Positions 28,256-64,000 of a stretch of DNA of 64,000 nucleotides are shown in pieces. Made by a program: the position numbers and the translations under genes. Source of the stretch: Candidatus Puniceispirillaceae bacterium. Its GTDB lineage: Bacteria > Pseudomonadota > Alphaproteobacteria > Puniceispirillales > Puniceispirillaceae. The notes under the pieces are model-generated. The model made no database searches. It was not told where the DNA came from and worked only from the letters and a program-made list of their open reading frames with translations. The DNA is taken from assembly GCA_965660095.1 (NCBI GenBank), contig CBFHYP010000011.1, forward strand, positions 1,070-65,069, read 5' to 3'. Position 1 is the stretch's first letter; each line of letters starts with the position of its first letter.

Positions 28256-28331
<76 letters not shown>

Positions 28332-46992: not shown

Positions 46993-47020
46993 TTATTTTG
47001 CAAAGACACTATCTCATGAA

Positions 47021-47045
47021 AGAGTGCGGGTTTCGCTCGCACTCT
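47021..47045 (+). other. intra-operon hairpin after the SBP gene
   Basis: 8-bp stem AGAGTGCG / CGCACTCT with a 9-nt loop, followed by a T-rich tract. Confidence 0.5.
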
Positions 47046-47106
47046 TCTCTATTCTTTAAAGACGTGTATATAAAACATTTATTCAGAATATTCACGGAAT
47101 CAAAAC

Positions 47107-48357: not shown

Positions 48358-48374
48358 GAAAAGAGCTTTTCAGC

Positions 48375-49601
48375 ATGATTAGTCGTACCTTACATCACAC
48401 GGTTCTTGCCTTAATCGTCTTTATTTGGGTTGTCCCTTTTATTGCGCTTGTGACGACCTCGCTGCGTTCTGAGCTGGCTTCAAAGACTTCTGGCTTTTGG
48501 ACCTCTTTTACCCCAACTGAATTGGGGCACCGTTTTAGCACCCATGATAAGGGAAATGATGCAGAAATTCTGGAAATGCAGGGTAACATTTTTGCGCGGT
48601 TAAATGTAGGCGAAGAAGATTTTCCAATCTCTGGTAAAGTGAAATCTGTATTATTTAAAGGGCGCATTCAAGACCCAGATAATCCTGATAAAACAAAGCT
48701 TATAAGAAAACTTGTCCCGGTTGGCGAAGTGATGGATGTGCGGGGCGGGGATTTTAGCTTTGCTGAAAATGGCGATTTTCTATGGACCTTTAAAGAGCCC
48801 ACAATCCCAAGGCCTAAAACCCTAGATGTGTTCATCGACCAAGACCCTGTGTTTGGTGCGCAGGCTTATGAAGAAGTGCTGTTTGAGAATAAGCATGTGC
48901 CTAATGCGTTAATCTCATCTTTTATTGTTACTATCCCTGCGACCATCATTCCGATAACCATTGCTGCATTTGCGGCTTATGCCTTTGCATGGATGCGTTT
49001 TCCTGGTCGTGACTGGCTGTTTGTGATTGTTGTCTCCTTAATGGTAGTGCCAACCCAGCTTGCTTTTCTGCCTATTCTGCAGGGGTTTAGCGGCATTGCA
49101 TCATGGGCAACATCCTTAAATCAATGGATGACAGATTGCGAGGCGACAAAGAGTTGTGAGGTGGCTTCAAAAAGCTTTGCAAGCCTGTGGATTACCCATA
49201 CTGCTTTTGGCCTTCCATTAGCGATTTACTTGTTAAGAAATTATATTGTGGGTTTACCACGGGAATTACTGGAAAGCGCCAGAATTGATGGTGCTAATCA
49301 CTTGCAGATTTTCACAAAATTGATTGTGCCTCTATCTGTGCCTGCATTGGCGTCTTTCAGCATTTTCCAATTTTTGTGGGTGTGGAATGATTTGATTGTC
49401 GCATTATATATCGGGCCGAATAATTCAGATGATTTGGTTTTTCCAATTCGTCTTCAACAACAGCTTGGCACCTTTAAAGATCAGCTTCATTTGCTGAATG
49501 CGTCTGCGGTAATCTCGATGATTGTGCCTGTCATTGTGTTTCTTGCGATGCAGCGTTATTTCATCCGTGGTCTGCTAGCAGGTTCGGTCAAGGGAGGCTA
49601 G
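48375..49601 (+). CDS. aglG: alpha-glucoside ABC transporter permease
   Basis: MalG-type permease with the EAA loop LESARIDGANHLQIFTKLIVP. 408 aa, with a long hydrophilic loop after TM1. Confidence 0.7.
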   Translation: MISRTLHHTVLALIVFIWVVPFIALVTTSLRSELASKTSGFWTSFTPTELGHRFSTHDKGNDAEILEMQGNIFARLNVGEEDFPISGKVKSVLFKGRIQDPDNPDKTKLIRKLVPVGEVMDVRGGDFSFAENGDFLWTFKEPTIPRPKTLDVFIDQDPVFGAQAYEEVLFENKHVPNALISSFIVTIPATIIPITIAAFAAYAFAWMRFPGRDWLFVIVVSLMVVPTQLAFLPILQGFSGIASWATSLNQWMTDCEATKSCEVASKSFASLWITHTAFGLPLAIYLLRNYIVGLPRELLESARIDGANHLQIFTKLIVPLSVPALASFSIFQFLWVWNDLIVALYIGPNNSDDLVFPIRLQQQLGTFKDQLHLLNASAVISMIVPVIVFLAMQRYFIRGLLAGSVKGG

Positions 49602-49604
49602 TTG

Positions 49605-51155
49605 ATGTCAGCATTAAAATGGTGGGAGACAGCGGTTATCTATCAGATTTATCCGCGTTCTTTTCAAGATTCAAATGGGGATGGTATTGGGGATTTACCA
49701 GGCATTACCTCTCGGCTAGATTATGTTGCTGGGCTTGAGGTGGATGCCATTTGGATTAGTCCTTTCTTTAAAAGTCCACAGCATGATTTTGGCTATGATG
49801 TATCTGATTATTGCGATATCAATCCTGAATATGGCACGCTTGCGGATTTTGATGAGATGCTTGGGTGCGCACATCAGCTTAATCTAAAGGTAATGGTAGA
49901 TATCGTGCCTGCGCATTGTAGTGCAGAGCATGAATGGTTCAAACAAAGCAGGCAATCACGCACCAATGATAAAGCAGATTGGTTTCACTGGGTTGACCCG
50001 CTAAAGGATGGTTCTGCACCAACAAATTGGCTGTCCTTTTTTGGTGGCCGTGCATGGAGTTGGGAGCCGCGCCGCCAGCAATATTATCTGCATAATTTTC
50101 TGCCTAGCCAGCCTAATCTTAATCACGCTAATCCTGATGTTACAAATGCGATGATGGAGGTTGCACGTTTCTGGTTTGACCGTGGCGTAGATGGGTTTAG
50201 GCTAGATGCGTTGCATACGATTAATGCAGACACCCCGCCCTTTAAGAATAACCTGCCTAACCCTGAATTTGTGCCTGGTCCATTGCCGCAAGACCAGCAG
50301 CCATTTTTTCGCCAGCTTCATGATAGCGCACAGCTTAATCAGCCTTCCTTACAGCATTTCAGCGATGCCATTCGTAGCGTAGCAGACCAGTATGATGACC
50401 GGTTTTTGATGGGTGAGGTTGATGGCGATAATGATAGTGCGATGGAGGTAAGTGCCGGATTTACCCAAGCTGGCAGATTGCATGCGACCTATAATTTCGA
50501 TTTGCTGGAATGGGATGGTCTTAGCGTTGCTGAGATGAAATCTGTGATCTCCAACGCGTTAGATAAATTTAATGACACTGGCAGACTGTCCTTTGCATTT
50601 TCTAATCATGATGTGCCGCGTTCTGCAACACGCCAGCTAAAAGCATTAGGGCTAGAGGAAGATGCGATAGATGACATGCAGCTATTATTGCTGAAACTTG
50701 AGGCATGTTTAATTGGCTCTTGTTGCGTTTTTCAAGGCGAGGAATTAGGACTGACCGATGTTCGCACCATCCCTCTTGAAAAGATGAAAGACCCGTGGGG
50801 AGTAGAGTTTGCACCTGAATTTTTGGGTAGGGACACATGCCGTACGCCGATGGTGTGGCGCGGGGATGAAAAACATGGCGGCTTTTCTGTTGGCAATGAA
50901 ACTTGGCTTCCGGTTGCAGATGCGCATTTGCCGCGCGCAGGTCTTGATGCTACTGAAAATGCCAATTCGATATATACCCAATTTGCACAATTTTTAAAAT
51001 GGCGCAAAACCCAGCCTGCCTTTACGCACGCGAATAAGATGTCACAGATTACAGGTGGTGAAAATGAGATTTGTTTTAACCGTATATCACCCCATCAGAC
51101 CATCAGATGCAGGTTTGATTTTAACAGCCTAACCGCATCTTTTGAGGAGATTTAA
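49605..51155 (+). CDS. aglA: GH13 alpha-glucosidase
   Basis: The N-terminus is WWETAVIYQIYPRSFQDSNGDGIGDL. GH13 conserved regions are DIVPAH, GFRLDALH, GEVDG and FSNHD. Confidence 0.85.
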   Translation: MSALKWWETAVIYQIYPRSFQDSNGDGIGDLPGITSRLDYVAGLEVDAIWISPFFKSPQHDFGYDVSDYCDINPEYGTLADFDEMLGCAHQLNLKVMVDIVPAHCSAEHEWFKQSRQSRTNDKADWFHWVDPLKDGSAPTNWLSFFGGRAWSWEPRRQQYYLHNFLPSQPNLNHANPDVTNAMMEVARFWFDRGVDGFRLDALHTINADTPPFKNNLPNPEFVPGPLPQDQQPFFRQLHDSAQLNQPSLQHFSDAIRSVADQYDDRFLMGEVDGDNDSAMEVSAGFTQAGRLHATYNFDLLEWDGLSVAEMKSVISNALDKFNDTGRLSFAFSNHDVPRSATRQLKALGLEEDAIDDMQLLLLKLEACLIGSCCVFQGEELGLTDVRTIPLEKMKDPWGVEFAPEFLGRDTCRTPMVWRGDEKHGGFSVGNETWLPVADAHLPRAGLDATENANSIYTQFAQFLKWRKTQPAFTHANKMSQITGGENEICFNRISPHQTIRCRFDFNSLTASFEEI

Positions 51156-51156
51156 A

Positions 51157-52215
51157 ATGGCACAGCTTGAATTAAAAGATGTGAATAAATCCTTTGGGCA
51201 GACAGATGTTATTCGTAATGTAAATCTGGATATTGAAAAAGGTGAGTTTGTGGTTTTTGTAGGCCCATCAGGGTGCGGTAAATCTACATTATTGCGGCTC
51301 ATTGCAGGGCTAGAAACGCTATCTACAGGTGAGATTATTATCGCCGATAAACCGGTGATGGATTTGCCGCCATCTAAGCGCGGTATTGCGATGGTCTTTC
51401 AATCCTATGCGCTATATCCGCATATGACGGTATTTCATAATATGGCATTTTCGCTCAACCTTCAGGGGTTCTCAAAAGCGGAGATTAAAGAGCGTGTTGA
51501 AGCGGCAGCAACGATTTTGCAGATGGAACATTTGCTAGACCGCCGGCCTGCTGAACTCTCTGGTGGCCAACGTCAGCGCGTTGCCATTGGACGGGCAATT
51601 GTACGAAACCCTGAAGTGTTTTTATTTGACGAACCACTATCTAATTTAGATGCGGCACTGCGGCATGATACCCGTGTTGAAATCGCAAAATTACATAATC
51701 AGTTAGGCGCAACCACGATTTATGTGACCCACGATCAGGTTGAAGCGATGACCCTAGCAGATAAGATTGTGGTGCTAAAAGATGGGGTGGTGATGCAGGT
51801 CGGTGCGCCAATGGATTTGTTTAATCATCCTGCAAATGAATTTGTTGCTGGTTTTCTTGGCTCGCCAAAAATGAACTTTTTTGAAGGCACAATTACAGAG
51901 CTAGACCCATTAAAAGGCACTGCTAGTTTTTCGGGTGAGGGAATTGAAGCACCATCTATTCGGCTAGTGTCTTCTGATAAAACAAAAGGCGATAAGGTGC
52001 GTTTAGGTATCCGTCCACAATATTTGCAGCTTGATTCAAAAGGCGGCGTGAAAGGCCACATCACGTTGGTTGAAAGGCTAGGGACAGAAACGGTGGTCGA
52101 GCTGAAAACATCAGCAGATACCGTGTTTCGCTTTGCCTCGCCAGACCTGCTCGATTTAGAGGTTGGCCAGCAGGTTAGCTTTAGCTTTGCAGCTGAAAAA
52201 GCACATTTATTTTAG
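51157..52215 (+). CDS. aglK: sugar ABC transporter ATP-binding protein (MalK/UgpC type)
   Basis: Contains GPSGCGKST, LSGGQRQRVAIGRA and FLFDEPLSNLD. ATG 51157 is preceded by GAGGAG; the track start at 51142 is less likely. Confidence 0.85.
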   Translation: MAQLELKDVNKSFGQTDVIRNVNLDIEKGEFVVFVGPSGCGKSTLLRLIAGLETLSTGEIIIADKPVMDLPPSKRGIAMVFQSYALYPHMTVFHNMAFSLNLQGFSKAEIKERVEAAATILQMEHLLDRRPAELSGGQRQRVAIGRAIVRNPEVFLFDEPLSNLDAALRHDTRVEIAKLHNQLGATTIYVTHDQVEAMTLADKIVVLKDGVVMQVGAPMDLFNHPANEFVAGFLGSPKMNFFEGTITELDPLKGTASFSGEGIEAPSIRLVSSDKTKGDKVRLGIRPQYLQLDSKGGVKGHITLVERLGTETVVELKTSADTVFRFASPDLLDLEVGQQVSFSFAAEKAHLF

Positions 52216-52348: not shown

Positions 52349-53374
52349 ATGTTTTCAGCGCGTCAATCCAGCGTATTTCTGTGCGTAATCGTCATGTCGG
52401 TATTGTCTGTGTCAGCGTCAATGGCTTCAACACTTGGCATTTATACCCATCGCCAGCCATTCCTACTTCAGCCTATTTTGGAAGCTTACACGGCTAAAAC
52501 AGGGGTTGAATTTAAGGTGGTGTATGCGCCGAAAGGTCTTGCGGAAAGGCTAAAGGCTGAGGGCGATAGAACTCAAGCGGATATCGTGCTAACGGTTGAT
52601 ATCAGCCGTATCAAGGAGCTTGCAGATACAAATTTACTCAGCGATTTAGGTTCTGATATCCTAGATGCGCAGGTTCCCCCTCATCTGCGTGATGCGAATG
52701 ATAAATGGACAGCCCTATCTTTGCGTGCGCGAATTATTGCTGTATCGAAGATGCGTGTAGGCAAGCAAGCTATCACCACCATTGAAGATTTAGCGCGCCC
52801 GAAATGGGCTGGCAAAGTGTGTTCTCGCAAAGGTAGCCATGTATATAACCGCGCCTTGCTTGCATCCCTAGTAGCGCATCATGGCGAAGAGGAAGCCCGC
52901 AATTGGGCATTGGGGTTTGTGAATAATATGGCGCGCCGTCCGCAAGGTAATGACAGAGCGCAGGCAAAAGCCATCTTTGCAGGGGAGTGTGATGTGGCTT
53001 TGATGAATACCTATTATTATGGCAAGATGAAGTTTAACACTGAAAAGCCTGAACAAAAGCAATGGGCAGACGCGATTGATATCGCCTTTTTCAATCAAGA
53101 AGGGCGCGGTCAGCATGTGAATATTTCAGCCGCAGGCATCACCAAGGGCTCATCACAAAAAGCAGATGCGCGCGCTTTCCTTGAATGGCTCACTTCGGTT
53201 GAGGCACAAACCCTCTACACCGAAATTAATTATGAATATCCGGTAAACCCAAATGCCGCTTTAAGTGAAGAGGTTGCATCTTGGGGGATGTTTAAGATGG
53301 ATGCATTATCCATGAATACCATCGCTGAGAACAGCCCAACCGCACAACGCATTATTCATCAAACAGGCTGGTAA
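52349..53374 (+). CDS. Fe(3+) ABC transporter substrate-binding protein (FbpA/AfuA type)
   Basis: 341 aa with a signal peptide and overall FbpA-like pattern (YTHRQP..., MNTYYYGKM). A Fur box lies upstream. Confidence 0.75.
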   Translation: MFSARQSSVFLCVIVMSVLSVSASMASTLGIYTHRQPFLLQPILEAYTAKTGVEFKVVYAPKGLAERLKAEGDRTQADIVLTVDISRIKELADTNLLSDLGSDILDAQVPPHLRDANDKWTALSLRARIIAVSKMRVGKQAITTIEDLARPKWAGKVCSRKGSHVYNRALLASLVAHHGEEEARNWALGFVNNMARRPQGNDRAQAKAIFAGECDVALMNTYYYGKMKFNTEKPEQKQWADAIDIAFFNQEGRGQHVNISAAGITKGSSQKADARAFLEWLTSVEAQTLYTEINYEYPVNPNAALSEEVASWGMFKMDALSMNTIAENSPTAQRIIHQTGW

Positions 53375-53429
53375 GCGTGTTGGCCAGTTGCTTATAGGGT
53401 TTGATAAATTAATGTTTGGTTTTCAGTAG

Positions 53430-54515
53430 GTGACTGGCGTGTTAAAGCTAAAAAAATCTTGGCTTTCTGTTCAGCAAGCTGTTTTGGTCTGCCTTAGCCT
53501 TTTCACATTTAGTGCATGTAGTGAGCGTATGGATTATTCGTCTTCTCCCCAATTTAATACCCAAAAAGGCCAGTTTGAGCATCCGTTAGGGGATCAGCAT
53601 GATAAAGGTTTTTTTGAACTTATTGGCCTTGCAAAACGCTATTTCTCACGGGAAAAAGATATAGCCGAAGAAACCGGTTTTCCCATTAGCACAACAGGGG
53701 CAGAAGCGCTTCGCACTTTCACTGAAAATCTGATCTGGGTTGGGCATTCTAGCGTGCTTATTAATCATGATAATCTAACCATTCTTACAGACCCGCATTT
53801 CAGCTTTCGGGCTTCACCTTTTAGCTTTATGGGGCCAAAACGTGTCACGCCTGCCCCGTTTCAGATTAAAGATTTGCCGCCTATTGATGTGGTTGTGATT
53901 AGCCATAATCACTATGACCATCTAGACAAGAACAGCATCAAAGAACTCGCACAGCGCCAGCCAAAAATTCAGTTTCTTGTTCCGCTAGGACTGAAAACGC
54001 TACTTGAGAAATGGGGCGCACAACAGGTTGTAGAATTAGATTGGTGGCAAGAGGTAGGTATTGGAAGCGCCACAATCCAACCAACCCCTGTTCAGCATTG
54101 GTCAAAACGTTCTGCTTTCGACCGCAATAAAACATTATGGTCAGGCTGGATGATGAATTGGGATGATTTCTCATTCTATTTTGCAGGGGATTCAGGTTAT
54201 TCAGAGGATTTCAAAAAAACAGCTGAACGGCTTGGCGCGCCCACCCTTGCAGCTATTCCCATCGGGGCGTATGAGCCGCGCGAATTTATGTCCTCAGCGC
54301 ATGTAAACCCTGATGAAGCGGCACTTATTTTTAACGATTTAGGCGCTTCTTACGCATTAGGAATACATTGGGGGACGTTTAAATTGACGCTTGAGCCCAT
54401 GGCAGAGCCGGTGCGTAAATTAGCGAACGCATTAGTGCGTGAAAATATTCCAGCAGATAGGTTTGTAACGCTAAAACATGGTGAGGCTTGGAAAGCGCCT
54501 TTTGATCGCCGTTAA
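53430..54515 (+). CDS. MBL-fold metallo-hydrolase lipoprotein (NAPE-PLD-like)
   Basis: Contains VISHNHYDHLD (an HxHxDH variant) and the lipobox-like FTFSAC. Confidence 0.75.
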   Translation: MTGVLKLKKSWLSVQQAVLVCLSLFTFSACSERMDYSSSPQFNTQKGQFEHPLGDQHDKGFFELIGLAKRYFSREKDIAEETGFPISTTGAEALRTFTENLIWVGHSSVLINHDNLTILTDPHFSFRASPFSFMGPKRVTPAPFQIKDLPPIDVVVISHNHYDHLDKNSIKELAQRQPKIQFLVPLGLKTLLEKWGAQQVVELDWWQEVGIGSATIQPTPVQHWSKRSAFDRNKTLWSGWMMNWDDFSFYFAGDSGYSEDFKKTAERLGAPTLAAIPIGAYEPREFMSSAHVNPDEAALIFNDLGASYALGIHWGTFKLTLEPMAEPVRKLANALVRENIPADRFVTLKHGEAWKAPFDRR

Positions 54516-54535
54516 TTTTCTGCATCATCAAAACA

Positions 54536-55150
54536 TCAATGGCCGTGAGATGCCATCCGCTCATGCACCGCAGCCATGCCGCGTGCTGACATATCGCTGA
54601 CCTCTGCTGCGTGGGTTTGAAGCAACGCGACAACCGCTGGATTTGCAGAGGTCTGGGTGACTGCAATCCCTAAATCGGTGGTCTCAATTTCTGTTTCAAT
54701 TTCAGTATACACCTCAAACAAAGCATCCAAGGTAGGGGATTGGATAATCACCTCAGGGTTTTTGCCTTCTTCTAATCGCGTAACCATCATAGAGACATGG
54801 GTGACAATCGCATCCCGCAAGGCGCCATCTTCTGCTTCGGTAACTGTTTTTATCCCGTTTGGTAAATTGACCACCTCTCTTTTAATTCCTGTGTGAAAGC
54901 GGAAAATAGTTTTGAGGTCTTCAACTTCTTGGGGTGTCGTATCCTTGCCCTGTAGCCCAGGCATATTCACCTCATCATGCTGGTGATGTGCGCCTTGGTG
55001 GCTGCCTTGTTTCGGCGGCTCGCCATGATGCATCCGATGCATAGCCTCATAAGTGCCAATGTGATTCTTATGCTGAAAAAAGAAAAAAGAAGCACCTGCG
55101 CCTAGGCTAAAAATCACAGCAGTGAAGAGAATAATTTTCAGAGTTTTCAT
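54536..55150 (-). CDS. secreted or membrane-anchored His-rich protein of unknown function
   Basis: An N-terminal hydrophobic segment is followed by 9 His within the 35-residue stretch QHKNH...HHQHDE, and the protein ends ...HERMASHGH. I recognise no family. Confidence 0.55.
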   Translation of the reverse strand: MKTLKIILFTAVIFSLGAGASFFFFQHKNHIGTYEAMHRMHHGEPPKQGSHQGAHHQHDEVNMPGLQGKDTTPQEVEDLKTIFRFHTGIKREVVNLPNGIKTVTEAEDGALRDAIVTHVSMMVTRLEEGKNPEVIIQSPTLDALFEVYTEIETEIETTDLGIAVTQTSANPAVVALLQTHAAEVSDMSARGMAAVHERMASHGH

Positions 55151-55333
55151 TATTGGGAATCACTTTAAGGTTTGAATTAACATTATCATAAACTCTCCTC
55201 TAACAGGAGGGTAAAGTGTTTATCACAATTTTTTTTGTGGCAGTTGTGCGATGAAATTCTGCTCACTAGCTGAACCAATTCACGATTAACACTGTATGAG
55301 AAGAAAGCGTTGGTGATTTAGGGAACCGGTATA

Positions 55334-55975
55334 TTGAAAGCGTTATTTTTGGGCTCGATTGGGGTCATTGCAGAAACATCTGAATTACAAAGACAAGCCT
55401 ATAACAGCGCTTTTGCTGAATATGGGCTTGATTGGTATTGGAGTGTTGGAAATTATTGTGAGATGCTGAAGCGGCCAGGCGGAAAGAAGCGTATTTCTGC
55501 TTTTTCAAATCTTGGGCTAGATGAAGATTTAATCCAAAATATTCACTTGCGGAAACAAGCTATCTATACTGAAATGCTTGATGGCGGCATCGCGCCGCGT
55601 GCAGGGCTTGTTGAGTGTATTGCCAAATGCCAAGAGCAGGGCGTAAAGCTTGGCCTGATTGCAACTACAACTCAGGCTAATATTAATGCGCTTTCGCATG
55701 CGATGAAAAAACATGTTGATTTCAAAGCATTTGATTTGATCACTATTAAGGATGATGTAAGTGCTGAAAAACCAAATGGTGAAGTATATCGCTATGCGTT
55801 AGAAAAATTAGGTGTTTCTGCACCCGATGTACTTGCTGTTGAAGATACAGAAGCCAATCAAACAGCTGCCATGCATGAACATATCATCTGCTATTTATTT
55901 GCAGGAGAATATGCAACAACAACGCATAATTTGAACGCGATAAATAATTTAGAAATCTTAACAGGGCAGTTATAG
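55334..55975 (+). CDS. HAD-fold protein with degenerate motif I
   Basis: Motif II (LIATTT), the motif III Lys (EKPNGE) and motif IV (VEDTEAN) are present. Motif I reads LFLGSIGVIAET instead of hhhDxDG. The start codon is TTG. Confidence 0.65.
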   Translation: MKALFLGSIGVIAETSELQRQAYNSAFAEYGLDWYWSVGNYCEMLKRPGGKKRISAFSNLGLDEDLIQNIHLRKQAIYTEMLDGGIAPRAGLVECIAKCQEQGVKLGLIATTTQANINALSHAMKKHVDFKAFDLITIKDDVSAEKPNGEVYRYALEKLGVSAPDVLAVEDTEANQTAAMHEHIICYLFAGEYATTTHNLNAINNLEILTGQL

Positions 55976-55993: not shown

Positions 55994-56980
55994 TTAAATG
56001 CCTGCAAGGATATCCTGACCTTGCATGTTTAGAAAATGAAGTAGATCAATAAAAATCCAATTTTCAGCTAGCTTATCACCGTCACGGCGGTAGATATCAA
56101 CAACCCGCATATCTGCGTAATCATTAAAAGCTGGCATCCCTAAATATCCGCCTGTTGGCTTGATGCTAAGATTTGGCCAGCCAAAAAAGCCGCCATAATT
56201 GCCCTCTGCCATCCTGCAAATATGGCCATTAAACCGCCGCCCCTCATTCTGTGTCCTAAAAGGGCGCTGATGTTGCTGGATATATCGCTCGATAGTGTAG
56301 GTCGCCCCAATGCCAGTTGGCCCCCACCACAGCATGTCTTCATGCCAGCATTGGCGAAGTTCTTCTTCAGGGGTCGCATACTGACCCTGGTTGATATCCC
56401 CTATCATTCGGTTAATGAGGGCAAGTGTTTCTTGTGATTTGGCTTGGTCTTGAGGTTCAAATAAAAGCCCATCATGGGTGCGCGGGCCAGGCTGAATAAG
56501 GTGCATAGCTGTCTGTGCTGTTATGGGGGTAATCCCCACCTGCGCCATTAAATGCAGCAGGTCTATGAATAAGGCTGTTTCAGTGATTTTGTTATTTTCA
56601 ACCTTATGAAATTCAGCATATCGGATCATCGCAATTTTATGATGCGGCGGGATACCCACAAATGGCTTGTCAAACAGACCCATAAAATGTCCCATTGATG
56701 CAACCCAAATAGCGTTAAAACCATCTATTTCATTGTGGCCTGCGAAAAAAATATCCTGTCTTCTTTGGATAGATGTGAAGGCTGTTTTGAAGGGTATGTA
56801 AAAATTTTTGATGACAGAATCAGTGCCATATTGTTCATGAAAAGGGTGCATGCCATACCAATGATAGGTATCTGACATGAATTTAGCAAAACATGAAGTT
56901 AGTGTGTCGATATCGGCATTTTCACTTGATTTCTGCCAATCTAGAACATGTTTTTTTGCGAATTCAAATGCATCTGCCAT
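55994..56980 (-). CDS. tandem SnoaL-like (NTF2-fold, 'ester cyclase') two-domain protein
   Basis: 328 aa. Each half carries the ...F.G.P.T.K/H...DF/Y.R..G.K..ENW...DLL....Q.G pattern. It is a paralogue of the 62001-63068 product. Confidence 0.7.
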   Translation of the reverse strand: MADAFEFAKKHVLDWQKSSENADIDTLTSCFAKFMSDTYHWYGMHPFHEQYGTDSVIKNFYIPFKTAFTSIQRRQDIFFAGHNEIDGFNAIWVASMGHFMGLFDKPFVGIPPHHKIAMIRYAEFHKVENNKITETALFIDLLHLMAQVGITPITAQTAMHLIQPGPRTHDGLLFEPQDQAKSQETLALINRMIGDINQGQYATPEEELRQCWHEDMLWWGPTGIGATYTIERYIQQHQRPFRTQNEGRRFNGHICRMAEGNYGGFFGWPNLSIKPTGGYLGMPAFNDYADMRVVDIYRRDGDKLAENWIFIDLLHFLNMQGQDILAGI

Positions 56981-57049
56981 GATGATTTCTTTCTGGATTT
57001 GGGCAATAGAAAATTAGACTTGTCAAACCTGTAATTATTCTTCTACCAT

Positions 57050-57069
57050 TTTTGCATAGGTATGCAAAA
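57050..57069. promoter_or_regulatory. 20-bp near-perfect palindrome, candidate LacI-family operator
   Basis: TTTTGCATA-GG-TATGCAAAA has 9-bp perfect arms. It lies in the 120-bp divergent intergenic region, just downstream of a TTGTCA (57020)...TACCAT (57044) promoter-like pair. Confidence 0.5.
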
Positions 57070-57100
57070 TTCGTTTTGTCATGTGGGAAAGCAGAACAAT

Positions 57101-58156
57101 ATGGCTTCAATTGAGTTAAAAAATGTCCATAAGCGATGGGGTAGTTTCATTGCTGTTGATGATTTTAATCTCACTATTTCAGATAATGAATTCCTCGTTC
57201 TGCTTGGGCCTTCTGGCTGTGGAAAAACAACCACTATGCGGATGATAGCTGGCTTGGAAGATGCAAGTTCAGGCGATATCCTTATAGATGGCAAGCGGGT
57301 GAATGAGCTTGAACCAAAAGACAGAGATGTTGCAATGGTATTTCAGTCTTATGGGCTGTATCCAAATATGAATGTCTATGAGAATATCCGCTTTCCGCTA
57401 AAGGTCAGGAAAATTGACCAAAGCAGCCATGATGCAAGGGTAAGACGTGCCTCGGCGATGGTTGAGCTAGACGAATTTTTGCACCGTAAACCTGCAGAAT
57501 TATCAGGCGGGCAGCGTCAAAGAGTTGCCCTTGCTAGAGCGATTGTGCGTGAGCCAAACGTATTTTTAATGGATGAGCCTTTATCCAACCTAGATGCTAA
57601 ATTGCGGGTTTCGACCCGTGCGCAAATAAAACATCTGCAACATGAGCTAAAGGTCACTACCATTTATGTAACCCATGACCAGATTGAGGCGATGACGCTT
57701 GCTGACCGTGTTGTGGTCATGAATAAAGGGGTTATTCAACAAATCGGCACTCCCACAGAAATTTATGACAAGCCTGCGAATTTATTTGTTGCTGGATTTA
57801 TCGGTAATCCTGCGATGAATTTGATTGAAGGTGAGATAAGGGCGGGCTGTTTTTCAGCTGAGCATATTTCAGTTAATGGCTTAAACCTGCCAGATGGCAA
57901 GGTTACGTTAGGCTTTCGGGCAGAAGATGCCGAGATTACGGACAAGCCGCGTAACGCACAAATTAAAGCGCCTACATATGCAATGGAACTGCTAGGGGAT
58001 GCAACGATGGTAACCGTAGTGGCGGGGCAATCACTTGTTGCGGTAAAGGCGCATAAGGAATTCCGCACAGAAATTGGGAGTGATGTCTATATTTCTGTTC
58101 CGGAAGCAAGCTGTCATCTGTTTGACAGCCAGACAGGTGAAAGAATGAGGGGCTAG
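57101..58156 (+). CDS. sugar-type (CUT1) ABC transporter ATP-binding protein
   Basis: Contains GPSGCGKTT, LSGGQRQRVALARA, FLMDEPLSNLD and a MalK-like C-terminal domain. The start is placed at MASIELKNV (57101); the track start at 57062 lies inside the palindrome. Confidence 0.88.
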   Translation: MASIELKNVHKRWGSFIAVDDFNLTISDNEFLVLLGPSGCGKTTTMRMIAGLEDASSGDILIDGKRVNELEPKDRDVAMVFQSYGLYPNMNVYENIRFPLKVRKIDQSSHDARVRRASAMVELDEFLHRKPAELSGGQRQRVALARAIVREPNVFLMDEPLSNLDAKLRVSTRAQIKHLQHELKVTTIYVTHDQIEAMTLADRVVVMNKGVIQQIGTPTEIYDKPANLFVAGFIGNPAMNLIEGEIRAGCFSAEHISVNGLNLPDGKVTLGFRAEDAEITDKPRNAQIKAPTYAMELLGDATMVTVVAGQSLVAVKAHKEFRTEIGSDVYISVPEASCHLFDSQTGERMRG

Positions 58157-58243
58157 TGCTCCTGCATGATCACATTTTACCCGATTTATCGGGGTAACAC
58201 CAGATGGCAGCGTAATCTGTCATCAACAATAAGGGAGAGACTA

Positions 58244-59470
58244 ATGTATTTAAGAAAAATAGCTTTAGCATCTGCTGTTGCCATTATGGCTAGCACTGCA
58301 GCACATGCGTGTAATATTTCAGCACGTGTTAGTGTCGTTGGAAATGAATTTCCAGCCATTCAAACTGTGGGCGCAGGCGCTCAAGCGTGTAGCGGTGCTG
58401 AAGTATCGACAAACCTTACAGCAGACCATCAAAAAATTAATGTTGCAGGGATGAGCGGAAATCCAGCTGAATATACGTCAGCGATTATTGCAAACTCATC
58501 TATTGTCGCCTTGATGAATAATGATGTTATCCGTCCGCTAGATGATTTAGTTGCAAAACATGGTAAGGATCTGAAAAAGAACCAGCTGATCACCATCAAT
58601 GGTAAAGTCATGGCTGTTGCCTTTATGGCAAATGCACAGCATCTGGTATATCGCGAAGATGTTTTGAAAAAGATTGGCATGGAGCCGCCTAAAACATATG
58701 AAGATATGCTGGCTGCTGCTGAAAAAATTCGCGCTGAAGGTATCATGCAAAACCCTGTGGGTGGAGCCTATAAAGCAGGCTGGAACCTTGCGCAAGAATT
58801 CAACAATATGTTCTTAGGATATGGTGGAAGCCACTTTAAGGATGGTTCTGCTCAGCCAAATGTGAATTCTGAAGCTGGTGTAAACGCGCTGAAAATGATG
58901 AAAGCTCTTTCAGCATATATGAACCCAGACTTCCTAACCCATGACAGTAATGCAACAAATGCAGAATTCCGCGCTGGTAATGTTGCGATTATGAATATGT
59001 GGGGCAGTAGAGCTGCAACCTTAGTAGATGTTGATGGTGTAAGTGCCGAGGTTAAAAATGGTATGAATATCGCTGGTCCGATGACTGTTGGCGGCGGAAA
59101 TACACCTGCATCAACCCTATGGTGGGATGGCTGGACTGTGGCTAAAAATGTGAGTGACGCAGAAGCAGAAGCGACCTTCATTGCGATGATGAACGGTATC
59201 GACCCGTCTATTTTGCAAGATGAAGAAATCCGGAAGCAAGCGGTGTGGCTGATTGATGGTTATACACCAACAGACGCAGCACGCGGGGTATTTGCGGCGG
59301 CACAGGCGAACACAATCCCTTATCCAATGTTGCCATATATGGGCTTATTGCATACGGCACTTGGTGCTGAGTTATCCGACTTTATGCAGGGCAAGGAATC
59401 TGCTGAACAGGCTCTTGCTGATGTAGAAGCAGCTTATATTGCAGCAGCTAAAGAAAAAGGCTTCCTATAA
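58244..59470 (+). CDS. extracellular solute-binding protein (family 1)
   Basis: ATG 58244 follows AAGGGAGAGA. The signal peptide is MYLRKIALASAVAIMASTAAHA. 408 aa. Confidence 0.8.
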   Translation: MYLRKIALASAVAIMASTAAHACNISARVSVVGNEFPAIQTVGAGAQACSGAEVSTNLTADHQKINVAGMSGNPAEYTSAIIANSSIVALMNNDVIRPLDDLVAKHGKDLKKNQLITINGKVMAVAFMANAQHLVYREDVLKKIGMEPPKTYEDMLAAAEKIRAEGIMQNPVGGAYKAGWNLAQEFNNMFLGYGGSHFKDGSAQPNVNSEAGVNALKMMKALSAYMNPDFLTHDSNATNAEFRAGNVAIMNMWGSRAATLVDVDGVSAEVKNGMNIAGPMTVGGGNTPASTLWWDGWTVAKNVSDAEAEATFIAMMNGIDPSILQDEEIRKQAVWLIDGYTPTDAARGVFAAAQANTIPYPMLPYMGLLHTALGAELSDFMQGKESAEQALADVEAAYIAAAKEKGFL

Positions 59471-59483
59471 GAAGCGCCACCTT

Positions 59484-59517
59484 TTTGGGAAGGGGGCTAT
59501 ATGTCTTCCTTCCCAAA
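59484..59517 (+). other. intra-operon hairpin after the SBP gene
   Basis: 10-bp stem TTTGGGAAGG / CCTTCCCAAA with a 14-nt loop. Confidence 0.5.
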
Positions 59518-59550
59518 TATTGCCCCAGACAATGTCATAGATAACCTATC

Positions 59551-60576
59551 ATGAAACACTCAACTTTTTTCTGGTTTTTTGCGCCAACTGGACTTGCGAT
59601 GCTCTTATTTATCGCTTTTCCGCTTGTGTCTGTTGTGTTGCAATCTGTGCATACACCGCATGAAGCTGTATTGGTTACGGTTGAGACATGCGGGCCATTT
59701 GGTTGCAGTCAAGAAACAGCGATTGATCAGGATGCGACAAGCGCCCTTCGTGCAGCTGAACCGCTAGGTCGTTTTGTGGGGCTGGATATCTATTTTGACA
59801 GAGCCCACTTAGCCGTTGGTGAAGTAAAGCAAGCGTGGGCGGCAGCTGATAGCTGGGGCGGATTTTTGGATGCGATAGGGAATTTGCCCTTTTATCGGGC
59901 GATGGCATTCACCCTAACCTTTACTTTCACAGTTACCCCTATTTTAATTATTTTTGGTCTGATGATTGCGCTTGGCGTGAATGCATTAAGCGAAAAAATT
60001 AAGGGGGTTGTTATTTTTGTCTCCTTATTGCCGATGATTGTCACCCCGCTTATCGGTTCACTTATTTTATTTTGGATGATCGATAGTCGTGGCATTCTTG
60101 GCAATGCTATTCAATGGCTGGCAGCAGATCCTGATTTATCTTTGAAAGCGTCTACAACCTTAACATGGGTAATGTTGATTGTGTATGGCGTTTGGCATTC
60201 TGCCCCCTTTGCCTTTGTGGTGTTTTATGCTGGTCTGCAGACCTTGCCAATGGACCAAATAGAATCTGCTCGGATTGACGGGGCGAGCAGATGGCAGCAA
60301 GTGCGCTATGTCATCGTACCGCATCTGATGCCGCTTATTACCTTTGTTGCGCTTATCCAATTAATGGATAATTTCAGAGTGTTTGAGCCTATTGTTGGGT
60401 TTAATGCCGAAGCGCATGCCACCTCATTAAGCTGGATTATCTTTAATGATTTAGGGGGGGAAACCCGTCAGCTTTCTGCAGCAGCAACTTCATCTATGCT
60501 GACGATTTTTGGGGTGGCGATATTGCTGTCACCTGTATTATGGCGCACTTGGCAAGATTTTAAGGGGAAATCGTGA
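59551..60576 (+). CDS. ABC transporter permease (MalF-like)
   Basis: EAA loop is IESARIDGASRWQQVRYVIVP, with six or more TM segments. Confidence 0.85.
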   Translation: MKHSTFFWFFAPTGLAMLLFIAFPLVSVVLQSVHTPHEAVLVTVETCGPFGCSQETAIDQDATSALRAAEPLGRFVGLDIYFDRAHLAVGEVKQAWAAADSWGGFLDAIGNLPFYRAMAFTLTFTFTVTPILIIFGLMIALGVNALSEKIKGVVIFVSLLPMIVTPLIGSLILFWMIDSRGILGNAIQWLAADPDLSLKASTTLTWVMLIVYGVWHSAPFAFVVFYAGLQTLPMDQIESARIDGASRWQQVRYVIVPHLMPLITFVALIQLMDNFRVFEPIVGFNAEAHATSLSWIIFNDLGGETRQLSAAATSSMLTIFGVAILLSPVLWRTWQDFKGKS

Positions 60577-61457
60577 TGAGTAGTGTTGCTAATCGTTATC
60601 CTCTTCACCTCAGAGCGTTGATTTACGGTTTTATCCTGTTATGGGTGCTCATGGCCGCATTTCCGTTTTTCTGGACGTTATGGGGCTCGTTCAAAGTAGA
60701 GCTTGATTTCTTTTCTATTGCCGACTGGACGAATGCGATTACAGGGCAAAATACTTTTGATACCTATGGCTCGTCCTTTACCGATACAGGCTATATAGGG
60801 GCGTGGATACAAGAAGAATTTTGGCGTTCAGCCATCAATACAGCGATTGTATGTTTCTTTGTGGTCTGTACATCGCTGACCATTGGAACGTTGGGCGGAT
60901 ATGCGCTTTCTCGGTCTGGATACCGCTATACATTCTGGTTATTAATCACCGCCCTTATTTTTAGAGCAATGCCGCCTATCACGCTTGTTTCTGGCTATTT
61001 ATTGCCCTTTTTCGAGTGGAATTTATGGGGCATATTACCCACAACGATTATCGTACTGGTGGCGATTAATCAGCCCTTTACCTTGTGGATGCTGCATTCA
61101 TTTTTCCAAAGTATCCCAAAAGAATTAGATGAAAGTGCAAAGGTAGATGGTTGTAGCCAGTTCCAAGCTTTCAGATTTGTTATCATCCCTGTGATGTGGC
61201 CTGGCGTTATCACAACAGGGCTATTCTCGTTTCTGCTTGCCTATAATGATTTCGCAGTTACCTCCATGCTGCTTTCAGACGAAAACAGAACCATGGTGCC
61301 GAAAATTGCAGCCTTTTTAGGCACTACCTATACGGAGGGCAATGTGATGTTTGCGGTCGCTGCTGTGGTGTCAGCAACCGCGCCTCTGTTTATTTTGGTG
61401 ATGTTTTTCCAGCGCCGAATTGTGTCTGGGCTAACCGCAGGTGCTGTGAAGGGATAA
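60576..61457 (+). CDS. ABC transporter permease (MalG-like)
   Basis: EAA loop is DESAKVDGCSQFQAFRFVIIP. The ATGA start overlaps the stop of the upstream permease. Confidence 0.85.
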   Translation: MSSVANRYPLHLRALIYGFILLWVLMAAFPFFWTLWGSFKVELDFFSIADWTNAITGQNTFDTYGSSFTDTGYIGAWIQEEFWRSAINTAIVCFFVVCTSLTIGTLGGYALSRSGYRYTFWLLITALIFRAMPPITLVSGYLLPFFEWNLWGILPTTIIVLVAINQPFTLWMLHSFFQSIPKELDESAKVDGCSQFQAFRFVIIPVMWPGVITTGLFSFLLAYNDFAVTSMLLSDENRTMVPKIAAFLGTTYTEGNVMFAVAAVVSATAPLFILVMFFQRRIVSGLTAGAVKG

Positions 61458-61461
61458 TGTA

Positions 61462-62004
61462 ATGGTCAAAGGGTCTCGTCCAGAACAAGCAACACTTAGT
61501 CGGGATACTGACCTCTCAAAGACGGATGAAACGCGCCGGGTTATCGAAGGTATGGTTGATGGGCTAAACGACCACCGGATTGATGATATTGGGGCTTTTT
61601 TTGCTGAGCATTTTCGCTGGATGGGTAACCAAGGGTGCGGCAGCAAGACAGGCTTGCGTGAGTTTCAAGATAATTGGCAACGCCCTTTTCAAGCCGCTTT
61701 TTCAGACAAGGTCTGTGTGGATGAAGCACGTCTTTATATGGGCGAATGGGCAGCTGCTTTTGGGCGGCAAGAAGCTGTGCATAGCGGCAGGTTTATGGGG
61801 GTGGAGCCGACCGGCAAGAAGGTGGAAATCCGCTATATGGATTTCTGGAAAGTTGTGAACGGAAAAATTGTTGATAATTGGGTGATGGTGGATTTCCCTC
61901 ATGTTCTCGCCCAGCTTGGTGTCGATGTTTTCAATGGTGAAGGCTGGGAAGCATTTGATGAGGGGCGGAAGTCGCCCCCCAGACCTGACGGGGGCAGCTC
62001 ATGA
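61462..62004 (+). CDS. single-domain SnoaL-like (NTF2-fold, 'ester cyclase') protein
   Basis: 180 aa with GRFMGVEPTGKKVEIRYMDFWKVVNGKIVDNWVMVDFPHVLAQLGVDV. It starts 4 nt after the permease stop. Confidence 0.75.
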   Translation: MVKGSRPEQATLSRDTDLSKTDETRRVIEGMVDGLNDHRIDDIGAFFAEHFRWMGNQGCGSKTGLREFQDNWQRPFQAAFSDKVCVDEARLYMGEWAAAFGRQEAVHSGRFMGVEPTGKKVEIRYMDFWKVVNGKIVDNWVMVDFPHVLAQLGVDVFNGEGWEAFDEGRKSPPRPDGGSS

Positions 62005-63068
62005 GTGATGCCCATCATCACAATAAAACAGCAATCAAGAGCTTGTGCAGGGCTTTATATGATTTTGACGAACAGGCAGTTCGCTCTATCCTAAACCAGT
62101 TGCTTGATGCTGATGCCATGTGTCATTTCAGCCGCCCTATAGGTGATGTGGAAAGCTCTCAGCTCTATGATGAGGTGTTTGCACCACTTGTTTTTGCACT
62201 ACCAGATTTAGAACGCAGAGATGTGATTTGCATTGCAGGTTCTGACCATGATGGGATGGAATGGGTGGGGTGCGCAGGGCATTATATGGGCAATTTTAGG
62301 AAGCCTTTTTTAGGCATTCCGCCAACAGGACATATTGCCCATATCAGGTTTCATGAATTCTTTCGCTTTGAAAATGGCAAGGTGGTTGAGATACAGGCTA
62401 TTTGGGATATGCCTGAGCTTATGATGCAGGCTGGGGTATGGCCAATGGCGCCCTCATTGGGTCGTGAGTGGCATGTGCCAGCCCCCGCCACCCAAGATGG
62501 ACTTAACCCGCCCGTAACCTATCGCGAGCAGGCAAGTGCAAATGTAGCACATATTGTTGATATGCTTACCGCGTTGCAACGCTATCCCAGCCAAGGCGGG
62601 GTAGAGGTAATGGAGATGGAGGTATATTGGCATCCCCATTTCAGCTGGTACGGCCCTGCAGGTATCGGCAGTTCACGCGGCGGCGATGGGTTCCGCAATT
62701 GGCATCAGCAGCCATTTTTAAATGCAATGCCAGATAGAGGCCAATATCCTGAAGAGGTAAGCCACCATTTCTTTGCTGAAGGTGCGTATGTCGGCGTTAC
62801 AGGCTGGCCGAATATGGCACAAACACTAACCGGTGATGGCTGGCTTGGTATTGCGCCAACACATCAGAAAATTACCCTCCGCTCGCTTGATTTTTGGCGG
62901 CTGGAAAAAGGGCTAATAAGAGAAAACTGGGTGCTGGTAGATTTGCTAGATGTATGGGCACAAATCGGTGTAGATGTAATGGCGCGGATGCAACAGCTTG
63001 TATCTGCTCGCCCCGATTATCAGATGTATTCTAAGGGGCAGGCGTATCAAAGTAGGGGTGTTGGATGA
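62001..63068 (+). CDS. tandem SnoaL-like (NTF2-fold) two-domain protein
   Basis: 355 aa. Domain 1 has GNFRKPFLGIPPTGHIAHIRFHEFFRFENGKVVEIQAIWDMPELMMQAG. Domain 2 has GIAPTHQKITLRSLDFWRLEKGLIRENWVLVDLLDVWAQIGVDV. ATGA overlaps occur at both ends. Confidence 0.75.
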   Translation: MSDAHHHNKTAIKSLCRALYDFDEQAVRSILNQLLDADAMCHFSRPIGDVESSQLYDEVFAPLVFALPDLERRDVICIAGSDHDGMEWVGCAGHYMGNFRKPFLGIPPTGHIAHIRFHEFFRFENGKVVEIQAIWDMPELMMQAGVWPMAPSLGREWHVPAPATQDGLNPPVTYREQASANVAHIVDMLTALQRYPSQGGVEVMEMEVYWHPHFSWYGPAGIGSSRGGDGFRNWHQQPFLNAMPDRGQYPEEVSHHFFAEGAYVGVTGWPNMAQTLTGDGWLGIAPTHQKITLRSLDFWRLEKGLIRENWVLVDLLDVWAQIGVDVMARMQQLVSARPDYQMYSKGQAYQSRGVG

Positions 63069-64000
63069 TGCCCAAGCAACAGGACGCACTGCACAGACTG
63101 CACCCAAAACCTGCATCATCGGGGCGCATTACTTCTGCTGATGTTGCACGTCTTGCCGGCGTAAGCCAATCTGCGGTAAGCCGTGTCTTTACTGATGGTG
63201 CATCTGCATCCGCAAAAACATCCGCCAAAGTAAAACAAGCTGCAAAGGCGCTTGGGTATCGCCCAAATCGGCTTGCGCGTTCCTTGCTTACAGGCAGGTC
63301 TTATATTGTTGGATTAGTTGTGGCGTATCTGGATAATTATTTCTATCCAGACGTGCTTGAAAAGCTGTCCAAATCTCTGCAACAGCAGGGCTATCATGTG
63401 CTAATATTTATGGCGGCACAAACTGCTGAAAACATCGATAATGTGGTTGAGGAAATCTTAGAATATCAGGTGGATGCGATTGTCACAGCATCTGTTGCCT
63501 TATCTTCTGAGCTGGCAGATAGATGTCAGTCTGCTGGCATTCCAATTGTCCAATTCAATCGTATTCAAGAACAATCTCATCTCTCTTCTGTCACTACAGA
63601 TAATTTCCAAGGAGGGCGCGAGATTGCATATCACCTCATTGCGCAAGGCTATCAAAGTTTTGGCTATGTTGCAGGTTGGGAAGGAGCCTCTACACAAAGA
63701 GACCGAGAGGCTGGATTTCGTTCAGGATTAGCAGAGCAGGGCTATAATATAAGCTTTCGTGCGGTTGGAAATTTTCGTACAGAACAAGCAAATGAAGCCG
63801 CCTACCAGCTTGTACGCACAAAAGATAGACCGCGCGCGCTGTTCGTTGCAAATGACGCTATGGCCCTTGTGGTGATGGATGTATTGCGGCACAAGGCAGG
63901 GCTATCGGTGCCAGATGATATTGCTGTGGTTGGCTATGATGATACTCCGCCAGCAGCTTGGCCAAGCTATGATTTAACCTCATATAGTCAGCCTGCAGAT
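63065..64000 (+). CDS. LacI-family transcriptional regulator, C-terminus outside window
   Basis: My own translation (not in the track, because the frame is open to the window end) gives MMPKQQ...ITSADVARLAGVSQSAVSRVF (HTH) ...GYRPNRLARSL.... A periplasmic-binding-fold sugar domain follows (VGYDD). Confidence 0.85.
   Translation, partial: MMPKQQDALHRLHPKPASSGRITSADVARLAGVSQSAVSRVFTDGASASAKTSAKVKQAAKALGYRPNRLARSLLTGRSYIVGLVVAYLDNYFYPDVLEKLSKSLQQQGYHVLIFMAAQTAENIDNVVEEILEYQVDAIVTASVALSSELADRCQSAGIPIVQFNRIQEQSHLSSVTTDNFQGGREIAYHLIAQGYQSFGYVAGWEGASTQRDREAGFRSGLAEQGYNISFRAVGNFRTEQANEAAYQLVRTKDRPRALFVANDAMALVVMDVLRHKAGLSVPDDIAVVGYDDTPPAAWPSYDLTSYSQPAD

Follow-up and report, generated by a model that had tools for sequence, protein, structure and literature searches.

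How is an imported compound processed by an operon in which a carbohydrate-type importer is accompanied only by a repressor and by proteins of the SnoaL/NTF2 (nuclear transport factor 2) fold? The question is raised by the last 8 kb of a 64,000-nucleotide stretch of DNA from a Candidatus Puniceispirillaceae bacterium (contig CBFHYP010000011.1), the whole of which is called here the window. Three SnoaL-fold proteins (genes A, F and G) are found there together with a predicted CUT1-type ATP-binding cassette (ABC) importer (genes B to E) and a LacI-family repressor (gene H), as listed in Table 1. The observation is real and far beyond chance; its headline anomaly, the absence of any conventional enzyme, is partly an artefact of the window end, and beyond it stands a very widespread and well-defined orphan pathway that is open to experiment. 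We consider it fairly probable that what the window holds is the upstream portion (A | B C D E F G H...), about the first two-thirds, of a marine uptake and catabolism island that is conserved and in which the SnoaL-fold proteins act as cofactor-free early enzymes. This reading is built on the gene content and order, the association of the importer with four SnoaL-fold proteins (A, F, G and I), a conserved palindrome, the conservation of the proteins and the continuation of the operon in relatives.

Organization of the island in the window and in related loci

Relatives of the two-domain protein G, the anchor of the survey, form 5480 homologous clusters at 90% identity; where a source name is attached, it is 'ester cyclase', 'polyketide cyclase' or 'nuclear transport factor 2 family protein'. 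When genomes were scanned, one for each species, such relatives were detected in at least 593 species genomes, mainly of SAR116, Rhodobacterales and Hyphomicrobiales, with some Gammaproteobacteria. Synteny was surveyed by tblastn on 85 loci, and frequencies were calculated on the 52 loci provided with full 10-kb flanks. A neighbourhood survey of this kind had been called for in the preliminary description. The transporter genes, encoding the solute-binding protein (SBP, gene C) and the two permeases (D and E), lie within 10 kb of G in 48 of the 52 loci (92%); the linkage between SnoaL-fold proteins and transporter is real, very strong and conserved across phyla.

In the nearest SAR116/Puniceispirillaceae relatives with enough sequence, the order A | B C D E F G H is followed by I J K L, which encode a further two-domain SnoaL-fold protein (I, 325 amino acids, aa), a bicupin (J, 319 aa), a Meth_synt_2/core-MetE-like protein (K, about 375 aa) and an alpha/beta hydrolase (L, about 240 aa). 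The relatives L001 and L005-L009 share 88-96% identity with the window in the SBP, and 66-73% in G. Every SAR116 locus that is long enough has I-J-K-L right after the LacI gene, often overlapping or nearly abutting, and the same genes most probably lie in the genome of the window just past position 64000. The impression of an operon devoid of conventional enzymes arises mostly because the window ends inside the LacI gene, before the other enzyme genes. The earlier statement that there are no enzymes but SnoaL-fold proteins holds for the 8 kb seen, but relatives continue with four more enzyme genes after LacI. For the SAR116 lineage, where a bicupin, a core-MetE-like protein and an alpha/beta hydrolase follow, the statement reflects the window edge; most other lineages add a HisD-like dehydrogenase, a short-chain dehydrogenase/reductase (SDR), an RraA-like protein and an Amidohydro_2 lactonase-like protein. 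A genuinely minimal version, made of the transporter and four SnoaL-fold proteins, does exist on Vibrio pelagius plasmids.

The canonical cluster comprises 15 genes, in the order A | B C D E F M G N H I J K L O, where M is the HisD-like dehydrogenase, N a KduD-like SDR and O the RraA-like protein. It is hosted by Rhodobacterales, Hyphomicrobiales, Granulosicoccus, Leucothrix, Thiolinea and SAR324. Among the fully flanked loci, I is present in 88%, J in 81%, K and M in 79% each, N in 75%, L in 63% and O in 60%. An Amidohydro_2 protein, closest to L-fucono-1,5-lactonase, sits beside A in 21-23 loci, and an S-adenosylmethionine (SAM)-methyltransferase is inserted between J and K in 13-14. Many Rhodobacterales clusters carry a fifth SnoaL-fold protein between E and F (L059 7083-8090, L075 7155-8132, L040 5641-6612), again composed of two domains and showing 30-43% identity to G or A, for a total of nine NTF2 domains per island.

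Within the window, the open reading frames (ORFs) listed in the preliminary description are all present at their coordinates, and their assignment to a CUT1-type ATPase, an SBP, two permeases, a LacI protein and SnoaL proteins is borne out by Pfam and NCBIfam. The plus strand carries seven genes, and not six as previously counted. Their tight chaining holds for four junctions, namely D/E (4-nt overlap, with a GTG start for E), E/F (4-nt gap), F/G and G/H (ATGA in both), but not for the ATPase-SBP and SBP-permease junctions (B-C and C-D), where gaps of about 80-90 nt are left once the starts are corrected according to the homologues. The ORF of B opens at 57062, at an ATG falling inside the candidate operator palindrome described below; the likely start is the ATG at 57101 (MASIELKNV), and the homologues, of 348-355 aa, are 9-16 residues shorter than the longest ORF. 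If B starts there, the region between A and B measures 120 bp, as had been stated for the shared promoter region. Similarly, the ORF of C opens at 58166, while its likely start is at 58244, with the signal peptide MYLRKIALASAV and a length of 408 aa as in the homologues, which are 26-32 residues shorter than the longest ORF.

Table 1. Features of the island in the window (positions are those of the window)
Feature	Position	Strand	Description
Gene A	55994..56980	-	two-domain SnoaL/NTF2-fold protein, 328 aa; PF07366 51 bits in two stretches
A/B promoter region	56981..57100		120 bp, divergent, between A and the transporter operon
Sigma-70-like site	57020-57049	+	TTGTCA-18-TACCAT; weak evidence
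Perfect palindrome	57050..57069		TTTTGCATA-GG-TATGCAAAA; core TGCATAGGTATGCA at 57053-57066; candidate LacI operator
Gene B	57101..58156	+	UgpC/MalK-type ABC ATPase; Pfam ABC_tran, OB_MalK and TOBE_2
Gene C	58244..59470	+	periplasmic SBP; Pfam SBP_bac_1/8
Gene D	59551..60576	+	ABC permease 1, MalF/UgpA-like; Pfam BPD_transp_1
Gene E	60573..61457	+	ABC permease 2, MalG-like; Pfam BPD_transp_1, weak NCBIfam MalG match
Gene F	61462..62004	+	single-domain SnoaL-fold protein, 180 aa; Pfam SnoaL E = 3.5e-20
Gene G	62001..63068	+	two-domain SnoaL-fold protein, 355 aa; two Pfam SnoaL matches; survey anchor
Gene H	63065..64000	+	LacI-family repressor; 312 of about 350 residues before the window end

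By their domain content, B to E are predicted to form a CUT1 ABC importer, having an ATPase with OB/TOBE domains, an SBP_bac_1/8 protein and two MalF/MalG-like permeases. The NCBIfam score of B for the UgpC subfamily is 453.8 bits, against a cut-off of 432. For C no equivalog was found in NCBIfam, and the best PDB match is SmoF, a binder of sulfoquinovosyl-glycerol, at E = 1.5e-11 only; C is thus at most a remote relative of binding proteins whose ligand is known. The product of H shows the layout expected of the LacI/GalR family, with an N-terminal helix-turn-helix domain (PF00356, residues 26-68) followed by a periplasmic-binding-protein-like effector domain (Peripla_BP_1/3/4); its homologues are 344-355 aa long.

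The full cluster is also found on plasmids, such as Marinovum algicola pMaD9 and Octadecabacter arcticus pOA238_160. The Vibrio pelagius plasmid NZ_CP090616.1 (L087, 26063-51064) carries only the CUT1 transporter (ATPase, SBP and two permeases) and four two-domain SnoaL-fold proteins, orthologues of A, G and I plus an extra one, and none of J, K, L, M, N and O. This module adjoins soxBDAG, purU, an L-serine ammonia-lyase gene (sdaA), an AraC-type regulator and a MesD/DUF1852 methionine synthase pair. On plasmid NZ_CP031313.1 (L088, 136146-165204) of the haloarchaeon Halobellus limi, which comes from a marine solar saltern, a row of SnoaL genes, four of them two-domain and one single-domain, is followed by K. 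An IclR regulator, a PotA-like ABC importer, an aldehyde dehydrogenase, a beta-hydroxyacid dehydrogenase and a metallo-beta-lactamase (MBL) hydrolase are found nearby, together with an O-demethylase-like protein scoring 470 bits for DesA and 432 bits for LigM. The distribution of the SnoaL-plus-K set implies either inter-domain transfer or an ancient origin. All together, the conserved core is formed by the transporter and the SnoaL set, usually with K and J, and methyl-group enzymes recur around it.

The Vibrio plasmid also lends itself to another explanation, in line with the preliminary description, in which importer and SnoaL-fold proteins are a self-sufficient unit, able to turn the imported compound directly into central metabolites or released amino acids or sugars, and J/K/L as well as M/N/O are lineage-specific additions. 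It would account for the 7 fully flanked loci, out of 52, where J, K and L are all missing within 10 kb, and for the plasmid pP14_a of Phaeobacter piscinae (L092), where a paralogous SBP-permeases-LacI module is accompanied by three SnoaL-fold proteins with about 29% identity to G. We regard this explanation as rather unlikely: I-J-K-L follow LacI in all the SAR116 loci of sufficient length, J and K accompany G in about 80% of the loci, and K is found with the SnoaL set in the haloarchaeon, too. Moreover, the plasmid records were read from PLSDB gene tables, which are incomplete.

The island is often located on plasmids or megaplasmids (24 plasmid records). In Tritonibacter mobilis (L003, 17162-21050) Tn7-like tniQ/tniB/transposase genes directly adjoin it, and in Octadecabacter insertion sequence (IS) elements lie both within it and on its flanks. 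Plasmid location, Tn7-like genes and IS elements are consistent with horizontal spread.

Fold, conservation and candidate role of the SnoaL-fold proteins

A, F and G all score above the Pfam gathering threshold of PF07366. The divergently transcribed A had been described as a paralogue of G, and it is a true one, with 32% identity across both domains (E = 6e-44). Mean column identity among orthologues is 82% for F, 70% for A and 66% for G, and invariant Asp, Glu, His, Arg and Trp residues are abundant in every domain; those of F include H107, Y125, D127, D138, N139 and D144, and among the invariant acids of G are E119, E130, D297 and E308. A, F and G are thus under strong purifying selection, and are not decaying paralogues, a possibility considered from the beginning. 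The pattern F.G.P.TGK..., reported in the preliminary description as shared by all five domains, is strictly matched by none and stands only as a loose consensus. Nor is it special to the window proteins: SnoaL has it as well (LVGMPPTDRRF...GKIRDHRDWPDF...LRQLG), which makes it a generic family signature.

No signal sequence is visible at the N-termini of A, F and G in the translations, so that the SnoaL-fold proteins would act in the cytoplasm, on the imported compound.

Profile searches and structure prediction, both recommended at the outset, assigned the proteins to no known, characterised family with a defined substrate. The best PDB sequence match of the set is that of F with SnoaL (1sjw, E = 2.6e-10, 138 residues aligned), and nothing better was found in PDB for the other window proteins of this fold. 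The June 2026 release of NCBIfam contains no equivalog for them: scores reach 37.7 bits for NF033407 (SnoaL/DnrD methyl ester cyclase), against a cut-off of 200, and 26-40 bits for TIGR02096 (ketosteroid-isomerase-related), against 97.1. The AlphaFold2 model of G (pLDDT 85.8, pTM 0.87) shows two alpha+beta cone domains of NTF2 fold, joined by a low-confidence linker. When compared with PDB by Foldseek, it retrieved generic matches only, all of them NTF2-fold enzymes (IdmH, ChaU, AclR, SnoaL2, KstA15, PhzA/B and MonBI-MonBII), at 12-22% identity, and no two-domain relative superposes well. Taken together, these comparisons place the SnoaL-fold proteins in no characterised enzyme family.

In SnoaL the catalytic Asp121 is accompanied by His107, His119 and Gln105. 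In order to compare active-site positions, the five window domains and the two domains of I from relative L005 were aligned by MAFFT to residues 6-143 of SnoaL. In the five window domains Asp121 of SnoaL is replaced by V/A/V/L/I, His119 by N/I/N/T/N and His107 by D/E/D/E/D; HMMER pairwise alignments agree. The acid at the His107 position is invariant in each window domain; an Arg three residues upstream of it is conserved, as is an acid at position 118. As the catalytic residues of SnoaL are replaced, the fold is common to SnoaL, the mechanism is not.

Known systems of the same fold offer partial precedents. The alpha+beta cone and the family sequence signature are common to the window proteins and to the SnoaL/AknH/DnrD methyl ester cyclases (PF07366, 1SJW); unlike SnoaL, the window proteins are mostly tandem two-domain fusions, and are tied to an importer, a repressor and degradative enzymes, with no polyketide synthase context. 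Paired or fused NTF2 domains work together in the epoxide-opening enzymes Lsd19 and MonBI-MonBII (PDB 9KW6), each domain being able to catalyse a separate step. MonBI-MonBII is the top Foldseek match, spanning both domains of G (E = 6e-9). The similarity is weak, with TM scores of 0.30 and 0.38, a root mean square deviation of 16 A and 12-13% identity, and the arrangement of the domains differs. Tandem domains, and an invariant Arg and two acids per domain, are observed in the window; the catalytic set of limonene-epoxide-hydrolase and Lsd19/MonB enzymes is Asp-Arg-Asp, or an acid pair, in the cone. Moreover, the Lsd19/MonB polyether enzymes are biosynthetic, unlike the island of the window. 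PhzA/B, at Foldseek ranks 27-44 for G, is a cofactor-free acid/base catalyst of imine condensation (amino-ketone/imine chemistry); as it belongs to another pathway and has no detectable sequence relationship with G, it is a precedent only for an NTF2 fold making or breaking C=N bonds.

NTF2 folds are also known as non-catalytic binding modules, as in NTF2 itself, in the C-terminal domain of OCP and in the CaMKII hub.

Several observations weigh against the SnoaL-fold proteins being early enzymes of one conserved island. None of the SnoaL catalytic residues Asp121, His119 and His107 is kept in A, F and G, and catalysis by these proteins is therefore something that we infer; since the fold can also be a binding module, conservation alone cannot separate binding from catalysis. 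The window itself stops within the LacI gene, without genes I-L, and the closest relative, L090 (86% identity), likewise ends in LacI and is uninformative on I-L. The SBPs of the related loci fall into at least three classes of divergence from that of the window (about 41-45%, 47-57% and 68-96% identity) and the permeases diverge too, while F, G, I, J and K stay at 57-90% identity; from these sequences the transporter may have been exchanged, or different lineages may import different members of one compound family. As the HisD-like, SDR and RraA-like genes are missing in the SAR116 and Vibrio versions, one common pathway across lineages is not assured. Finally, no paper was found in the literature describing the cluster or its SnoaL-fold proteins, or linking the proteins to a substrate, and no curated family does so either, in agreement with the initial proposal of an undescribed module.

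The first of these points leads to a different role, in which the SnoaL/NTF2 proteins are cytoplasmic ligand-binding or scaffold proteins and the chemistry is left to J, K, L and their partners. Their task might be to sequester the imported molecule, to hand it on to K or J, or to serve as structural subunits in a complex with the zinc enzyme. The start-stop overlaps at F/G and G/H, which suggest stoichiometric co-production, and the co-occurrence of the SnoaL set with K even in an archaeon fit such a role, as does the replacement of the SnoaL catalytic residues in all five domains. Four to five conserved paralogues, each with a different set of invariant Asp/Glu/His/Arg residues, look more like enzymes than carriers; in the Vibrio module there is no other enzyme to serve, and the nearest structural neighbours (IdmH, ChaU, AclR/SnoaL2, PhzA/B and MonB) are all enzymes. 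On balance, a purely binding function seems improbable to us. Membership in a biosynthetic or polyketide-tailoring cluster is suggested by PF07366, by the automatic names 'ester cyclase' and 'polyketide cyclase' and by anthracycline enzymes being the best PDB sequence and fold matches. The 'ester cyclases' would then, like SnoaL, AknH and SnoaL2, carry out the cyclisation or hydroxylation of an aromatic polyketide, and the product would be exported by the ABC system. Such a role is hardly tenable, since about 90 loci contain no gene for a polyketide synthase, a ketoreductase/aromatase or a glycosyltransferase, a periplasmic binding protein with MalF/G-type permeases denotes an importer, the repressor is of LacI type, SnoaL Asp121 is missing and the hosts include streamlined SAR116 plankton.

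Candidate operator, downstream enzymes and proposed pathway

The palindrome reported in Table 1 sits directly downstream of the -10-like hexamer. Its core, TGCATA-NN-TATGCA, is found with up to 2 mismatches in the A|B intergenic region of 46 of the 52 related loci, against a background of 0.02 per 250 bp, and its centre is usually CG. In the SAR116 loci, the window among them, there is only one copy, and its centre is GG. In Rhodobacterales loci (L017, L021, L039, L040 and others) the element is usually doubled; the two centres are 54-56 bp, or about five helical turns, apart, a spacing suggestive of cooperative binding or of a loop made by the repressor. The core is also present, as an exact copy, upstream of M in Roseibium. 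On this evidence, TGCATA-NN-TATGCA is likely the operator of the LacI-family repressor of the cluster. No riboswitch or other RNA element was detected near the island; the Rfam matches in the whole window are two tRNAs, at 1541-1612 (minus strand) and 28256-28328 (plus strand).

Pfam, NCBIfam and PDB searches yielded nothing more than generic superfamily matches for A, F, G, I, J, K and L and for the SBP, and the remaining proteins of the cluster match curated NCBIfam models (June 2026) only far below the cut-offs. In J, the H-x-H-x3-E motif is conserved in the N-terminal cupin, and the His of the second motif is replaced by Arg; there is no close solved relative in PDB and no NCBIfam equivalog in the June 2026 release. 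K matches the models of short, cobalamin-independent methionine synthases (core-MetE) and retains the zinc ligands His-x-Cys, Glu and Cys (HICWGNY, FETSNPRH, GSDCGF): H243, C245, E277 and C343 are invariant in 18 orthologues, and the protein is 80% conserved. Its best score against methionine-synthase equivalogs is 91 bits, with a cut-off of 406, and it sits in a repressor-controlled, catabolic operon. According to a 2025 study (PMC12478193), the role of the core-MetE homologues of aerobic marine bacteria is not demonstrated. L resembles 3-oxoadipate enol-lactonase (PcaD-like), as well as enol-lactonases and esterases. A methyl/C1 theme recurs among the genes associated with the island, in K, in the SAM-methyltransferase between J and K, and in the DesA/LigM-like O-demethylase beside the haloarchaeal version.

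If the SnoaL-fold proteins are indeed enzymes of a conserved uptake and catabolism island, the following course of events may be envisaged. The LacI-family protein would repress both divergent transcripts via TGCATA-NN-TATGCA, until released by the imported compound or by its product. The importer would take in a small, polar, carbohydrate- or cyclitol-like metabolite of algae or phytoplankton, carbonyl-bearing and probably methylated. In the cytoplasm the SnoaL-fold proteins, acting as cofactor-free acid/base enzymes with an active site different from that of SnoaL, would perform the first substrate-specific steps. Candidate reactions are isomerisation, hydration/dehydration, ring opening, and C-N or C-O cleavage next to a carbonyl, an imine or an epoxide; the paralogous domains could handle successive steps or a family of related substrates. 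The product would then be processed by J, K and L, for example through isomerisation or cleavage with the help of a metal, the transfer of a methyl or alkyl group at a zinc-thiolate, and the hydrolysis of an ester or lactone, and, where present, by the HisD-like, SDR, lactonase-like and RraA-like enzymes. Both the substrate class and the order of these steps are what we infer from gene content.

A more specific proposal is that the tandem SnoaL/NTF2 proteins represent a new class of cofactor-free catabolic enzymes for an abundant, still 'orphan' methoxylated marine metabolite, mycosporine-like amino acids or gadusol-type sunscreens being the most attractive candidates. The imine or enaminone bonds to different amino acids would be hydrolysed by the paralogous domains, removal of the O-methyl group would fall to the core-MetE-like enzyme (to a DesA/LigM-like one in haloarchaea), the bicupin would cleave the resulting reductone ring, and the HisD-like and RraA-like enzymes would process the tertiary-alcohol fragment. 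The idea is compatible with the habitats of the carriers (surface-ocean SAR116, roseobacters, algal epiphytes and a solar-saltern archaeon), with the methyl theme, and with the position of the Vibrio module beside sox-purU-sdaA, which points to glycine/serine handling. In this specific form it is a speculative proposal, to which we give little credit; if true, it would describe the first catabolic pathway for these compounds.

Other substrates and pathways were considered. Homarine is rejected, since it is degraded, according to the published pathway, by the unrelated homABCDER genes. A methanethiol link through SBP56/MtoX is rejected as well: a SBP56-type selenium-binding protein (methanethiol-oxidase family) adjoins the cluster only near L092 and L086 (pMaD9), 2 of about 90 loci. 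So is methionine salvage, as the neighbours that could indicate it, a class II aldolase (2 loci) and a HAD hydrolase (1 locus), are lineage-specific. The lower protocatechuate-4,5-cleavage/syringate pathway has LigI/LigJ amidohydrolases, the RraA-like aldolase LigK and the O-demethylases DesA/LigM; the Rhodobacterales version of the island likewise pairs an Amidohydro_2 protein with an RraA-like one, and the haloarchaeal version lies beside a DesA/LigM-like demethylase. Membership in that pathway is not supported, as scores are far below the equivalog cut-offs, the amidohydrolase is closer to L-fucono-1,5-lactonase and no LigAB or DesB-type dioxygenase is present; the resemblance is limited to enzyme classes.

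Neighbouring genes and significance of the island

An ordinary LacI-controlled CUT1 operon of the aglEFGAK type is present upstream of the island in the same window, at 45640-52215. It contains a GH13 alpha-amylase-family enzyme (49602-51155, E = 3e-115), a MalK-like ATPase (51142-52215), two permeases, and an ORF of 450 aa with no Pfam match, possibly the binding protein. The four genes between the two transporter operons (52349-55975) encode an SBP_bac_6/8 protein of iron or thiamine type, a Lactamase_B_2 protein of MBL fold, a His-rich 204-aa product of a minus-strand ORF with no Pfam match, and a HAD_2 hydrolase. The latter is convergent with A, and is a neighbour common only to the closest relative L090.

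The operon at 45640-52215, the sulfoquinovose smo cluster and the island have the same transporter architecture and the same logic of LacI and palindromic operator, with central CG or GG. Ordinary CUT1 operons carry a glycoside hydrolase, a kinase or an isomerase, whereas the island, which is without these, has 4-5 SnoaL-fold proteins together with a bicupin, a core-MetE-like enzyme and a hydrolase. It is thus an inducible ABC-importer catabolic operon, known in kind, with an unprecedented enzyme set.

In most of the surveyed loci the relatives of G sit in the island, and the carriers include some of the most abundant heterotrophs of the surface ocean (SAR116, the Roseobacter group and algal epiphytes). 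A conserved, inducible pathway of 12-16 genes with such a spread implies a common dissolved organic compound, to whose turnover no gene has so far been assigned. Direct tests are within reach, since the binding protein, the repressor and the candidate operator are all defined. [quoted passage not shown]

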